From an uncultured Candidatus Saccharibacteria bacterium (GTDB lineage: Bacteria; Patescibacteriota; Minisyncoccia; Minisyncoccales; 2-12-FULL-40-12), in NCBI GenBank assembly GCA_964518135.1, contig CAZFEY010000004.1, positions 1 to 33,389 on the forward strand: 33,389 nt of DNA, in the 5' to 3' direction. The notes under the pieces were generated by a model, which did not search any database, was not told the origin of the DNA, and worked only from the letters and a program-made list of their open reading frames with translations. Position 1 is the first letter of the stretch. The number at the start of each line of letters is the position of its first letter. This document shows positions 1,812 to 33,389 of the stretch, piece by piece. A program made the position numbers and the translations under genes.

Positions 1812-1888
1812 CCCGGTAGTGAATTTTGGACTCGCTTTGTGAATAGATCCACTTTAGATAGCGAGATCTTCCAAAATCTACTACCGGG
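1812..1888. mobile_element. MITE-like element, CCCGGTAG family, copy 1
   Basis: Ends CCCGGTAGTGAATTTTGGA / TCCAAAATCTACTACCGGG; flanked by TTGA (1808-1811) and TTGA (1889-1892). Confidence 0.8.
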
Positions 1889-23967: not shown

Positions 23968-24046
23968 CCCGGTAGTGAATTTTTAACTGGCGTTGCCAAA
24001 AACACGCCACCTTAGGTGGCGTGGCTGTCAAAAATCTACTACCGGG
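23968..24046. mobile_element. MITE-like element, CCCGGTAG family, copy 3
   Basis: CCCGGTAGTGAATTTTT...AAAAATCTACTACCGGG, internal hairpin CACGCCAC-CTTAG-GTGGCGTG; flanks TCAA/CAAG (imperfect). Confidence 0.8.
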
Positions 24047-31229: not shown

Positions 31230-32762
31230 TTACTGCTCTATAACTACTTTTTCGCCTACTTGAAGCCCGGAAATAATTTCTACCATGCCGTCTGTACCTT
31301 CTAAACCAAGAATCACTTCTCTTTCTTGAATCCTGCCATTTTTAGAAACATTAACCGTAGATTTACCGTTATGTCTTGTTATCGCGTCCTCGGGAATAAT
31401 TATTACATCTTGCTTCGTTCCTGTTTTAATATTAACATCGGCCGTCATACCAGGTTTCAAACTTTCTGGAATTTCTTCTTCAAAAGCAATGTTTACTTCA
31501 TAATAAATAACTCCTTCTATTGCCTTTTCGGCAGGATCGATACTTACAACTTTACCCTTGAATATTTTTTCAGGGAAAGGAATCAAATAAATATCAACAT
31601 TATTACCAACACTCACCAATACCACGTCTTCTTCATAAATATCAGCATCGACTTCGAATGGAATTAACGGCAAAACAGAGACAACAGGATCCAGGCTTCC
31701 TGCTTGTGCTGTTTCGCCGGCTTTCTTGTTTACTCTTACCACCTTACCGTCAACAGGGCTTTTCAGCGTAACGTCCCTGATTTGCTCCATTAAAAGTTGT
31801 ACTTTTGCCCTAGCTTCTTTTACTTGCGCTTCATAAAGACCGTTTTGGCTTACATCTAACTGATTCTCTAGGTTAAATACCGTAGATCTTGCGCTATTGA
31901 TAGCGTCGTCTGCATTAGCTTTGGCCAAGGCAATATCTGCCTTAGCAGTAAGAAGATTAGAATAAGCTGTGTTTATGTTTAATTTATATGTATCAAGAGA
32001 GTTTTTATCTGTAGTAGAAACTATGTCCCTATATCCGCTTGTTTCAATAGTGATCCTTGCCTGCTCTAACTGATCCCTTATCGTAAGAACCTTACCTTCA
32101 AGCTCATTTAAAGCCAAATCAATATTTTCCTTGCTGGGATTAGCTTTAATTTTATCAACGTGAATTTTTATAACATCTAGCGCTTTGTCGATCTCGGTAC
32201 TATTGTCAAAAATTGCGCCGCTTTCTTGCGTGGGATGAGATGTAAAATAGGTACGCTTTAACAATTCTATAAAAGCAAATGCGTTATAGCCCTTGAGATA
32301 CGCATCATCAACCACTGCTATTGCATCTTTATACTCTTTATCAACTTTCTCATTGTTGGTAGTTATGGTATCTGCTAAATCTTGACGCGCAGCGCTTAAA
32401 GATAATTGCGCATCACCTCTTTGTGCTTCAATAACGTTTAGCGCAGCATTTGCTTGTTCTAGTTGGATCTGGAGTTGTCTAGCGTCAAGCCTAGCTAATT
32501 CCTGACCACTAACAACCTTGTCGCCTGCTTTTACCGCAACGCTTTCAATTCTACCAGTGGTTTTAAAATTAAGTCCAATTTCCTCTCCTTTTTGTACTTG
32601 GCCAGTTTCGGAAACCTCTTGTACAACATTTCCTTTTACAACATCAAATAAAACAAAACTCGACTTCTCTCTTTTTATAAAGATTTGGTATATCGCTATT
32701 ATCAGCACAATAACAATAATAACGATTACGATAATTCTCCTATTAAGAATAAGTTTCTTCAT
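31230..32762 (-). CDS. Efflux membrane-fusion (MacA/HlyD-like) adaptor with long coiled coil
   Basis: N-terminal TM, lipoyl half-motifs VKAGDKV..GQELARLD and KSPVDGKV, LKPGMTA, VEIISGLQVGEKV. Confidence 0.9.
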   Translation of the reverse strand: MKKLILNRRIIVIVIIVIVLIIAIYQIFIKREKSSFVLFDVVKGNVVQEVSETGQVQKGEEIGLNFKTTGRIESVAVKAGDKVVSGQELARLDARQLQIQLEQANAALNVIEAQRGDAQLSLSAARQDLADTITTNNEKVDKEYKDAIAVVDDAYLKGYNAFAFIELLKRTYFTSHPTQESGAIFDNSTEIDKALDVIKIHVDKIKANPSKENIDLALNELEGKVLTIRDQLEQARITIETSGYRDIVSTTDKNSLDTYKLNINTAYSNLLTAKADIALAKANADDAINSARSTVFNLENQLDVSQNGLYEAQVKEARAKVQLLMEQIRDVTLKSPVDGKVVRVNKKAGETAQAGSLDPVVSVLPLIPFEVDADIYEEDVVLVSVGNNVDIYLIPFPEKIFKGKVVSIDPAEKAIEGVIYYEVNIAFEEEIPESLKPGMTADVNIKTGTKQDVIIIPEDAITRHNGKSTVNVSKNGRIQEREVILGLEGTDGMVEIISGLQVGEKVVIEQ

Positions 32763-32805
32763 GATTTATTATTATAATTGTTTCAAAGGTAAATTTCAAT
32801 TAATG

Positions 32806-32831
32806 AAAAATCGCCCCGAAAGGGATTTTTT
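32806..32831 (-). terminator. Terminator of the tRNA-Thr/rpmG/tRNA-Trp unit
   Basis: AAAAATCGCCC-CGAA-AGGGATTTTTT hairpin with U-tracts on both strands. Confidence 0.6.
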
Positions 32832-32845
32832 GTCAGTTTTTAATG

Positions 32846-32899
32846 CAGGGGTGGAGGGAGTTATCCGATCAGGATCGGATGCCCACTCCAACGGTTTTG
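32846..32899 (-). pseudogene. 3' half of a degenerate tRNA-Trp with a palindrome replacing the T-loop
   Basis: Minus strand CAAAACCGTTGGAGTGGG-[CATCCGATCCTGATCGGATA]-ACTCCCTCCACCCCTG; compare intact copy CAAAACCGTTGATCAAGG-TTCG-AATCCTTGTGACCCTG. Confidence 0.7.
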
Positions 32900-32917
32900 C
32901 CTGCCCGCCGTATTTTG

Positions 32918-32988
32918 CAGGGTCACAAGGATTCGAACCTTGATCAACGGTTTTGGAGACCGCTATTCTGCCATTGAACTATGACCCT
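32918..32988 (-). tRNA. tRNA-Trp(CCA)
   Basis: AGGGTCATAGTTCAATGGCAGAATAGCGGTCTCCAAAACCGTTGATCAAGGTTCGAATCCTTGTGACCCTG forms a full cloverleaf. Confidence 0.95.
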
Positions 32989-33010
32989 ATATTCTCTCGG
33001 CAGCAGGCGG

Positions 33011-33045
33011 GGAGACCCGCTATTTTACCACTAAGCTAAGCCCCT
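33011..33045 (-). pseudogene. 5' half of a degenerate tRNA-Trp
   Basis: Minus strand AGGGGCTTAGCTTAGTGGTAAAATAGCGGGTCTCC aligns with the first ~34 nt of the intact tRNA-Trp and stops in the anticodon. Confidence 0.75.
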
Positions 33046-33060
33046 ATAGGCAGATTATAC

Positions 33061-33231
33061 CTACTTTTTGATCTCTTTGTGCGGTGTATGCTTTTTACAC
33101 CAACGGCAAAACTTTTTCATCTCTAATTTTTTCTCGCTTGCTACGGTTTTTCCTTTTGACTTGCGAGTAAAATAATTGATCCTTTTGCAATCAGCGCACT
33201 GGAGTTTAACGAATGGTTTTTTTGTTGCCAT
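33061..33231 (-). CDS. rpmG: 50S ribosomal protein L33 (Zn-binding type)
   Basis: Manual translation: MATKKPFVKLQCADCKRINYFTRKSKGKTVASEKKLEMKKFCRWCKKHTPHKEIKK. Confidence 0.95.
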   Translation of the reverse strand: MATKKPFVKLQCADCKRINYFTRKSKGKTVASEKKLEMKKFCRWCKKHTPHKEIKK

Positions 33232-33337
33232 GTAATTTGAATTATTTTATTTGGTTAATTATTGACTAATCCGATGTACTTATATATCCTTTTAAGATGC
33301 GCGAAACAAACTGTCTGGTTTTTTCTCCGCCTTGGTA

Positions 33338-33389
33338 AGCCGATGGGGAGAATTGAACTCCCGACTTCCATCTTACCAAGATGGCGTTC
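33338..33389 (-). tRNA. tRNA-Thr(GGT), 5' end outside the window
   Basis: Anticodon arm CCATC-TTGGTAA-GATGG, T-arm GGGAG-TTCAATT-CTCCC, acceptor 3' strand CATCGGC. Confidence 0.9.

Follow-up and report, generated by a model that had tools for sequence, protein, structure and literature searches.

The window analysed here is a stretch of 33,389 nucleotides (nt) from an uncultured Candidatus Saccharibacteria bacterium. It is one entire contig of a metagenome-assembled genome, G000 (758,684 bases in 67 contigs, 97% complete, 38% G+C), in which 45 tRNAs were found. At its tRNA-Trp locus, 340 nt from the contig end, an intact tRNA-Trp gene lies inside a second, degenerate tRNA-Trp gene. The inner gene is carried on a 112-bp insert that splits the anticodon of the outer gene between nucleotides 35 and 36 (Table 1). 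In the labels used below, G denotes genomes, L retrieved loci or contigs, C contigs of G000 and X sequencing runs.

A tRNA-Trp gene nested in a tRNA-Trp pseudogene

On the minus strand, the outer 5′ half begins 15 nt after the rpmG stop codon and is followed by a GC-rich arm, an AT-rich spacer, the inner gene, a second spacer, a complementary arm and the outer 3′ half. The sequence-only reading had described this succession of elements, and all of its positions are correct. The two arms pair with −20.4 kcal/mol, an energy equalled by 1 of 1,000 shuffles. The 45-nt flanks of the inner gene pair with −29.7 kcal/mol, compared with a median of −9.3 kcal/mol and a 5th percentile of −18.8 kcal/mol for 81 tRNAs of relatives. 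When the 200-nt stretch is folded as a whole, the arms are paired around the inner cloverleaf (z −3.4, no equal among 200 shuffles).

Because the genome is a metagenome assembly in 67 contigs and the site is close to a contig end, an artefact of assembly or binning was considered. Logan contigs from four runs were placed on window positions 32500–33389. In X1 (possibly the source run) and X3 (another sample), two contigs with zero differences cover 32500–32962 and 32971 onward; their sole break falls inside the inner tRNA, where words common to other organisms accumulate. In X5, from another study, one contig (record 18) covers 32899–33158, that is, the right arm, inner gene, left arm and outer 5′ half, and a second covers 32500–32897, again with zero differences. 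Stretches lacking contig cover in X3, X5 and X7 are evidence neither way. A pattern scan of Joint Genome Institute (JGI) metagenome contigs also yielded L101 (3,843 nt), identical across the entire structure, and L103, likewise identical to its contig end. The words common to the inner and outer genes are at most 11 nt long, too short to mislead an assembler. The structure is reproduced in three samples of two studies and in two JGI contigs; an assembly chimera, which the sequence-only reading had named as a possible refutation, is excluded for practical purposes, and the probability of an artefact of any kind is negligible.

The outer gene sits where relatives have their tRNA-Trp. Matches to rpmG were found in 46 of 61 related genomes, and the gene order there is tRNA-Tyr, tRNA-Thr, rpmG, tRNA-Trp, with all three tRNAs present in 25 of the 29 loci retrieved. 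In G001, of the same genus, a run of N directly after rpmG makes the site uninformative. BLAST alignments in four relatives (G034, G017, G003 and G046) run from rpmG into the tRNA and break off at query position 240, precisely where the outer 5′ half ends. When scored piecewise, the outer gene reaches 48 of 68 against the tRNA-Trp of L010/L102, 45 against that of L013, 39 against L029, 36 against the same-family L030, and 33 against the inner gene. The 5′ half alone has a local score of 29/35 against the tRNA-Trp of L010/L102 and aligns to positions 4–31 of a tRNA profile in nhmmer (E 0.59). The outer copy is thus a tRNA-Trp homologue at the syntenic position, beyond what chance would give. 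We read it as the resident gene at the ancestral site because it is colinear with rpmG in four relatives and closer to the tRNA-Trp genes of relatives than to the inner gene. As a separate observation, L101 carries tRNA-Tyr (1422–1506) on the strand opposite tRNA-Thr, rpmG and tRNA-Trp, which share one strand with it in 25 related loci; this is a local inversion.

The outer gene is a pseudogene. Compared with the L010/L102 type it has about six lesions. C11 in the D stem is unpaired, the anticodon stem has one G too many, the T stem has one mismatch and the acceptor two, and the T-loop is lost, a palindrome standing in its place. Excision in silico covered 56 boundary combinations for the insert and 3,920 more for the insert together with the palindrome; ARAGORN called a tRNA-Trp in none of the 3,976 variants. 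Other anticodons were called in 8 of the 56 insert-only variants and in none of the 3,920. An Rfam search gave no match for the outer halves at E ≤ 1. Joining the halves, proposed earlier as a test against a tRNA model, hence does not restore a recognizable tRNA-Trp, even though homology and position exceed chance; that the outer copy has decayed is borne out.

By every measure applied, the inner gene has the properties of a functional tRNA. It scores 68.5 bits against the Rfam tRNA model (gathering score 29), is called tRNA-Trp(cca) by ARAGORN, and shows a cloverleaf, the anticodon CCA, discriminator G73 and the end ...GACCCT-G. ARAGORN and Rfam call it alone at this locus, and it is the only tRNA-Trp found among the 45 tRNAs of G000. 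Its closest matches are the tRNA-Trp genes of L104 (a Candidatus Staskawiczbacteria record; 63/72) and L005/L105 (G005; 62/72). In L104 and L005, tRNA-Trp is followed by GC-rich hairpins and then by an open reading frame (ORF) for a GIY-YIG protein of 76–77 residues, and the neighbouring genes are unrelated. No tRNA-Trp was found in G005 at the ancestral site downstream of rpmG. Aligning the flanks of the Trp insert with these L104/L105 cassettes gave a weak, unconvincing match. On this sequence evidence, the inner gene is of a different lineage from the outer one. The tRNA-Trp genes of G001 (same genus) and of G003 and G004 (same family) are all of other types, and tRNA-Trp therefore turns over fast in this group. 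A further arrangement was seen in contig C15 of G052 (L098, 789–1511), where two identical GIY-YIG genes stand in tandem directly after a second tRNA-Trp; G052 additionally has an rpmG-linked tRNA-Trp (L023).

The two lineages bear on whether the structure could have arisen locally, by duplication of tRNA-Trp, in tandem or in part, and later loss and divergence of sequence, with no foreign DNA involved. Inner and outer genes do have the words TAGCGG, GGTCTCC and CAAAACCGTTG in common, and tRNA clusters are common in these genomes. However, tRNA-Trp genes of other genomes resemble the outer gene more than the inner gene does (48 versus 33), the inner gene is closest to cassette-borne genes of distant genomes, and a duplication predicts the order 5′+3′, 5′+3′ rather than the observed 5′[5′+3′]3′ with complementary arms at both joints. 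A local origin is thus improbable, and the earlier view that this is not a simple tandem duplication holds.

Table 1 Features of the tRNA-Trp locus, listed in minus-strand order (window positions)
Feature	Position	Strand	Basis or remark
tRNA 3′ part, truncated by the contig end	33338..33389	-	Rfam 34.6 bits, model positions 21-71; tRNA-Thr(GGT) in the longer contig L101
rpmG (ribosomal protein L33, 56 aa)	33061..33231	-	ORF listing; conserved upstream neighbour of tRNA-Trp
Outer tRNA-Trp 5′ half, 35 nt (acceptor, D arm, anticodon stem to C35)	33011..33045	-	Sequence, profile, BLAST
Left arm of insert, CCGCCTGCTGCCG; read on the + strand, right end AGCAGGCGGG	32998..33010	-	
AT-rich 5′ spacer (leader) of inner tRNA, AGAGAATAT	32989..32997	-	
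Inner intact tRNA-Trp(CCA), no encoded CCA	32917..32988	-	ARAGORN, Rfam RF00005
AT-rich 3′ spacer (trailer), AAAATA	32911..32916	-	
Right arm, CGGCGGGCAGGC, i.e. CGGCGGGCAGG(C); on the + strand, left end CCTGCCCGCC	32899..32910	-	
Outer tRNA-Trp 3′ half, 53 nt (A36 on, anticodon stem, T stem, acceptor 3′ strand)	32846..32898	-	
18-nt palindrome ATCCGATCCTGATCGGAT = ATCCGATC-CT-GATCGGAT, in T-loop position of outer gene	32863..32880	none	
Promoter-like TTGAAA-17-TATAAT	32771..32799	-	For downstream 510-aa membrane-fusion-like gene; marks the end of the rpmG/tRNA unit

Recurrent nesting and common insert ends

The Trp case is one of many nestings of a tRNA gene within a gene of the same identity. 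We removed each tRNA with 0–46 nt on either side at 40 loci of G000 and sought a tRNA call across the junction. Such calls were obtained at Trp, Val-GAC, Val-TAC, Ala-TGC (contig C26), Ala-CGC and Pro-CGG; one further call was an artefact from a neighbouring gene, and the other 33 loci gave none. A tRNA profile run on G000 with the called tRNAs masked found 19 fragments, and for 9 of these a called tRNA lies no more than 30 nt away. Leader and trailer pair with −22 kcal/mol or stronger in 11 of the 42 G000 tRNA genes with usable flanks; among the 81 tRNAs of relatives, 3 reach −20 kcal/mol.

Where the outer anticodon is readable by eye (Trp, Val-TAC, Ala-CGC, Arg-TCG and Pro-CGG), it equals the inner one in all five loci. 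Three of these genes are split between anticodon nucleotides 35 and 36: Trp (CTCC|AAAA), Val-TAC (TTTA|CAAG) and Ala-CGC (TTCG|CATT). In Arg-TCG, the outer loop CTTCGGA is intact and the inner gene sits in the T-loop. The outer copies at Lys-CTT and Arg-GCG are reduced to the acceptor stem and part of the D arm, the whole anticodon arm being gone, which fits decay and not function.

Similar nestings occur in other genomes: a tRNA-Thr within an outer tRNA (L011, G051), a Val-GAC within a nearly intact Val-GAC with the insertion after nucleotide 37 (37|38; L110, G269), a Val-GAC in Val-GAC at 37|38 with ends TCCCGTT/AACGGGA (L129, G199), and an outer gene with an anticodon arm retained and an Arg-GCG in its T-loop (L114, G428). 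These came from 172 tRNAs in 107 loci retrieved for different purposes, a set from which no frequency can be derived. Nested same-identity tRNAs are thus present at 6–11 of the 45 tRNA genes of G000 and in at least four other genomes. The syntenic cluster Val-GAC ... Leu-GAG, Val-TAC is un-nested in G002 and G003, which are of the same family. When the G000 nestings were sought in same-family genomes, the flanks were too diverged and only the inner tRNAs matched.

Several neighbouring observations concern tRNA genes of the same genomes. In L129, a further insertion, about 230 nt long, interrupts the variable/T-arm region of the outer Val-GAC (positions 230–470). A tRNA-His-like 5′ two-thirds with a GTG loop (C3:10092–10056; L040) precedes the intact tRNA-His of G000 (9493–9421) by about 560 nt and may be a long-range form of nesting. 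An 18-nt exact repeat of the tRNA-Gly(TCC) 3′ end plus CCA lies about 125 nt downstream of that gene, with palindromes between (C1:178–394; L044), and looks like a very small att-type insertion at a tRNA 3′ end. ARAGORN also calls a tRNA-Ile with anticodon TAT (C17:3080–3152), an anticodon uncommon in bacteria.

The ends of the Trp insert belong to a recurring family. Read on the + strand, the insert runs CCTGCCCGCC...AGCAGGCGGG (112 nt). Matching ends are found on the Arg-TCG insert (CCTGCCCGCCA...GGCAGGCGGG, 104 nt), on the Val-GAC insert of L110 in another genome (CCTACCCGCCA...GGCAGGCGGG, 107 nt), on a cargo-less 42-nt hairpin in the T-loop of a dead Pro gene and on a 42-nt hairpin following tRNA-Leu-CAA; the Val-TAC insert (111 nt) has Trp-type ends with two changes in each. 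The ends CCTGCCCGCC and GGCAGGCGGG, allowing up to two changes each, mark 11 places in G000, tRNA loci in 7 cases, and 0–3 places in each of five shuffled genomes. Terminal inverted repeats are common to several copies, as in miniature inverted-repeat transposable elements (MITEs) and repetitive extragenic palindromic (REP) sequences. Arms enclosing tRNAs at other tRNA loci, which the sequence-only reading had suggested looking for, therefore exist in both G000 and another genome, and its complementary GC-rich arms are indeed ends of a wider kind. A second end family, TCCCGA.../...TCGGGA, bounds the Ala inserts in both G000 and G052 and recurs in L129, and a third, CTCTTT/AAAGRG, is found on G000 Val-GAC and G051 Thr. 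A BLAST search of all tRNA flanks against G000 found no long repeated flank element; the arm family is visible only through its short end words.

Two further kinds of repeat were seen. The pattern ATCCGnn...nnCGGAT has 22 matches in G000 against 10 expected, about 6 of which are true palindromes of 17–19 nt: the one in the T-loop of the dead Trp gene (window 32863–32880) and those at C1:341, C1:57202, C5:5011, C20:3691 and C23:2491. Protein binding is one possible role. A MITE-like repeat, roughly 66–84 nt long and with the ends CCCGGTAG tgaattttgac ... gtcaaaaatcta CTACCGGG, has about nine copies in G000, including window 1812–1888 and 23968–24046, C2:41436, C2:47375, C3:2488, C3:17828, C5:33033 and C48:126. 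One copy lies directly upstream of the RNase P RNA gene (1927–2313), and another coincides with an ARAGORN 'tRNA-Leu(taa)' at C2:47374–47460, perhaps a false call.

GIY-YIG nuclease genes beside tRNA genes

The insert family is linked to genes for small GIY-YIG nucleases, of which G000 has seven. In the Ala-CGC nesting, a GIY-YIG ORF (C1, 17290–17502) lies between the outer 5′ half and the inner gene. Another lies directly upstream of a tRNA-Met (C7, 16666–16738) that has an outer 3′ remnant downstream, and a further one directly upstream of tRNA-Cys. The homologue of the Ala nesting in G052 has an identical left end, TCCCGATTT, and the GIY-YIG proteins of the two are sisters (support 99/95). 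In a tree of 52 proteins, the Trp-linked L104 and L005 proteins are also sisters (100/100), and three Gln-linked genes fall together (97/85). This grouping by linked tRNA is suggestive only, since kin share labels.

The linkage extends well beyond G000. Among the best 40 small GIY-YIG loci across the order, 16 have a same-strand tRNA within about 160 nt. With a cutoff of E ≤ 1e-10, proteins of the L104 type have matches in 157 of the 401 genomes examined from the class. Of 30 such loci retrieved, 22 have a tRNA at most 160 nt upstream (Ser in 17, Trp in 4, Glu in 1), and in three the order is rpmG, tRNA-Trp, GIY-YIG. A conserved GC-rich leader separates the GIY-YIG ORF from the 3′ end (...CCGCC) of tRNA-Ser or tRNA-Trp; it has two hairpins, with compensatory changes in 6 of 17 pairs, and its first helix strand takes in the last tRNA bases. 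Examples are found in L107–L136 (L117 1737–1807, L134 1385–1497) and at C1:114–182 of G000; an Rfam search of this leader returned no family. The C1:114–182 copy of the arm words matches the leader profile with E 1.2e-6, and the profile run on the Trp arms themselves stays below significance. A role of the nuclease in tRNA replacement is a putative one, suggested by the tRNA/GIY-YIG linkage. That the nuclease drives the replacement is possible, at somewhat less than an even chance.

Comparison with known systems and proposed origin

The pairing of the arms raises the possibility of an intron-like precursor, in which removal of the inner tRNA would leave the outer halves to be joined, or to work while split, as a second functional tRNA-Trp. 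The paired minimum-energy fold (z −3.4, 0 of 200 shuffles) is in keeping with this, as is the nearly intact outer Val-GAC of L110, with its insert at the canonical 37|38 site. However, EndA (PF01974) and RtcB (PF01139) had no matches in G000, with controls matched in 4 and 10 of 14 genomes, and a group I core (RF00028) was found neither in the window nor at E ≤ 1 in L001, by a search that does detect a tRNA intron on contig C6; splicing is therefore unlikely. Bulge-helix-bulge geometry was not found, the outer Trp copy has no T-loop, mismatched stems and no tRNA-Trp call in any excision variant, and some outer copies elsewhere (Lys, Arg-GCG) lack the entire anticodon arm. Restoration of an outer tRNA is thus highly unlikely. 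The other part of the intron-like alternative raised by the sequence-only reading fares better: pairing of the arms, and release of the inner tRNA from a longer precursor, are likely.

A group I intron and archaeal-type splicing were rejected on similar grounds. For a group I intron, the 5′ piece ends ...CTCC and offers no U/G splice bases; a U/G pair would give CAA, not CCA. A bulge-helix-bulge consists of two 3-nt bulges separated by a 4-bp helix; for archaeal-type splicing, the enzymes are missing from the search results and the joints lie in a 6-nt/3-nt internal loop by a 6-bp helix, with no such motif. An integrase-type island is opposed by the absence of a direct repeat of the 3′ part and of an ORF in the 112-bp insert, and by 5′ and 3′ remnants that flank a whole gene. 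As regards a homing-endonuclease element, no endonuclease gene lies in or beside the Trp insert; one is present in the sister nesting at Ala-CGC and upstream of the tRNA-Met. The intron mode of ARAGORN mostly gives chimeric calls, such as 'tRNA-Leu(caa)' at the Trp locus, and was unused as evidence. The intron on contig C6 (1580–1849; L031 281–550), of group I and some 200 nt long, interrupts a tRNA (Thr-TGT according to ARAGORN) after U33; it scores 51.2 bits with Rfam RF00028, for which the gathering score is 50.

Insertions in essential single-copy RNA genes normally persist by self-splicing, as group I introns do, or by bringing the displaced 3′ part, as islands do. Disrupted tRNA genes of archaea (with multiple introns, split or permuted) are interrupted in the anticodon loop, T-loop and D-loop, and their pieces are joined through complementary sequences rich in GC. 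Such genes need a splicing endonuclease and a ligase, and the pieces form a functional tRNA, whereas in G000 neither enzyme gene was found and the outer pieces have decayed. Synthetic 'cleave and rescue' elements, engineered, Cas9-based and used in insects, destroy an essential resident gene and supply a rescue copy; at the Trp locus, too, the resident gene is lost and a copy is carried in the insert, with a cleavage step that can only be surmised.

Group I introns in bacterial tRNAs, often with homing-endonuclease genes, resemble the Trp insert in entering the anticodon loop while a working tRNA is kept; the Trp insert, by contrast, has no ribozyme, is only 112 bp long, and brings a whole replacement gene while the interrupted one is lost. 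Such introns are described as frequent in the tRNAs of metagenome genomes of an unnamed phylum (bioRxiv 10.1101/2020.01.27.920355). SegB, a free-standing GIY-YIG enzyme in a tRNA cluster of phage T4, promotes the inheritance of itself and neighbouring tRNA genes (PMC2330249). The small GIY-YIG genes of this bacterial class and order likewise adjoin tRNA genes; in contrast to SegB, their proteins consist of the catalytic domain only, their activity is predicted, and no such gene is present at the Trp locus. SegB, moreover, acts between phages and is not known to leave a nested remnant when it replaces alleles. [quoted passage not shown] They share with the Trp insert the radiation and the interruption of structural RNA genes; they lie in rRNA and bring no replacement gene, and the term tRNA has 0 occurrences in that paper. 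Integrative elements target tRNA loops and keep a working tRNA by bringing tRNA sequence (attL/attR; PMC9897764), whereas here a whole gene lies between 5′ and 3′ remnants within 200 bp. The Trp locus lacks what defines each of these systems; the common ground is that an insertion in an essential RNA gene is kept harmless. A limited full-text literature search (nested or interrupted bacterial tRNAs and tRNA-adjacent GIY-YIG genes, with supplements outside its scope) found no description of the arrangement, and the pattern, wider than the Trp locus, is apparently undescribed in the literature searched.

Taken as a whole, we consider the Trp insert to be probably a mobile, possibly nuclease-driven, tRNA replacement cassette. 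This reading builds on the anatomy of the locus, the two lineages, the decay of the outer copy, the recurrence of nesting, the common ends and the GIY-YIG/tRNA linkage. The outer gene would be the original rpmG-linked tRNA-Trp of the lineage. After a break in a loop of this resident gene, a 112-bp cassette composed of a tRNA-Trp of another lineage, AT-rich spacers and GC-rich complementary ends would have entered the anticodon between C35 and A36. It would have been copied or joined in, and the outer halves flanking it in a donor may have provided homology for transfer into the same tRNA gene of the recipient. The tRNA of the cassette would then have become the working gene and the split outer halves would have decayed, any nuclease gene in the Trp copy being lost likewise. 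The main proposal of the sequence-only reading, that an element split the resident tRNA at its anticodon and brought a replacement of the same identity, is supported by the other-lineage inner gene, the complementary recurring ends, the ancestral site and the decay of the outer copy.

At the level of RNA, the unit is probably co-transcribed with rpmG. In the transcript, the arms would pair, probably keeping the inner cloverleaf apart from the outer sequence, which resembles it. RNase P, whose RNA (bacterial type) is encoded in G000 along with tmRNA, a 3′ nuclease and the CCA-adding enzyme would release the inner tRNA, leaving the outer halves as waste. The family to which the insert would belong comprises GC-armed insertions in the anticodon loop or T-loop, whose tRNA cargo, when present, matches the identity of the split gene. 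As some members still carry a small GIY-YIG gene, its most likely driver would be spread through nuclease-made breaks and repair, a homing-like, natural 'cleave and rescue', with the Trp copy as an ORF-less member.

Several points weigh against this reading. No empty-site allele of the Trp locus was present among the three metagenome contigs matched, so the putative insertion at this locus rests on comparison. We infer the order of events, the transcription and processing, and the nuclease role from sequence. The insert contains no nuclease ORF or remnant in the ORF listing; the GIY-YIG proteins (77–84 residues, catalytic domain only, nearest to the UPF0213 protein of PDB 1zg2) are without the DNA-binding domains of proven homing enzymes; and most of their genes lie beside, not inside, tRNA genes, with outer fragments in only 2 of the 40 loci. 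The anticodon arms of the inner and outer Trp genes are near-identical, and there is hence no evident 'immune rescue copy'. Insertion points vary, being 35|36 in three G000 loci, 37|38 in L110 and L129, and in the T-loop or D-loop elsewhere. Read-level confirmation covers, among the G000 nestings, the Trp locus alone. In the same-family genome G004, the 12 nt of the right arm follow tRNA-Trp as the first half of a hairpin, and in L102 one 107-nt copy of the arm words surrounds non-tRNA DNA; the arm words may be flank hairpins carried along rather than transposon ends.

A rival reading is a nuclease-free capture, in which a fragment of foreign tRNA-Trp with halves of its flank hairpins, arriving for example by natural transformation, was joined by illegitimate or microhomology joining into a break in the resident anticodon. 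The arms would be pieces of flank hairpins, not element ends, and nothing would be mobile in itself. The right arm and its spacer do resemble the 3′ flank of the G004 tRNA-Trp, AAAA..CGGCGGGCAGGC; arm words occur in ordinary post-tRNA hairpins and leaders; and the Trp insert has no ORF and no clear target-site duplication, with a single C at most repeated at its joints. However, an isolated capture does not account for 6–11 nestings in one genome, of the same identity wherever readable, for identical ends of 10–11 nt on inserts with different cargo in two genomes, or for insertion points that recur within loops. We consider such a capture unlikely.

With its proposed replacement cassette, the Trp locus would represent a third solution to the persistence of insertions in essential RNA genes, beside self-splicing and the return of a displaced 3′ part: the insert brings a whole new gene and the old one decays. 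If the linked minimal GIY-YIG proteins drive the replacement, this would be a natural cleave-and-rescue acting on tRNA genes, and it would give a testable function to the very common, uncharacterised UPF0213-like GIY-YIG proteins beside tRNA genes. For annotation, the intron mode of tRNA finders yields chimeric calls at nested loci, and tRNA fragments are common in these genomes. The horizontal exchange of tRNA genes in this radiation may far exceed what is assumed. Tentatively, and with considerable doubt, we suggest that the CPR may hold a previously undescribed class of selfish tRNA replacement cassettes, GC-armed and with or without a minimal GIY-YIG gene, that home into the anticodon loop or T-loop of tRNA genes of the same identity, kill them and substitute for them. 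If so, repeated rounds of cassette entry would explain the nested remnants, the fast turnover of tRNA genes among close relatives and the class-wide GIY-YIG/tRNA linkage.

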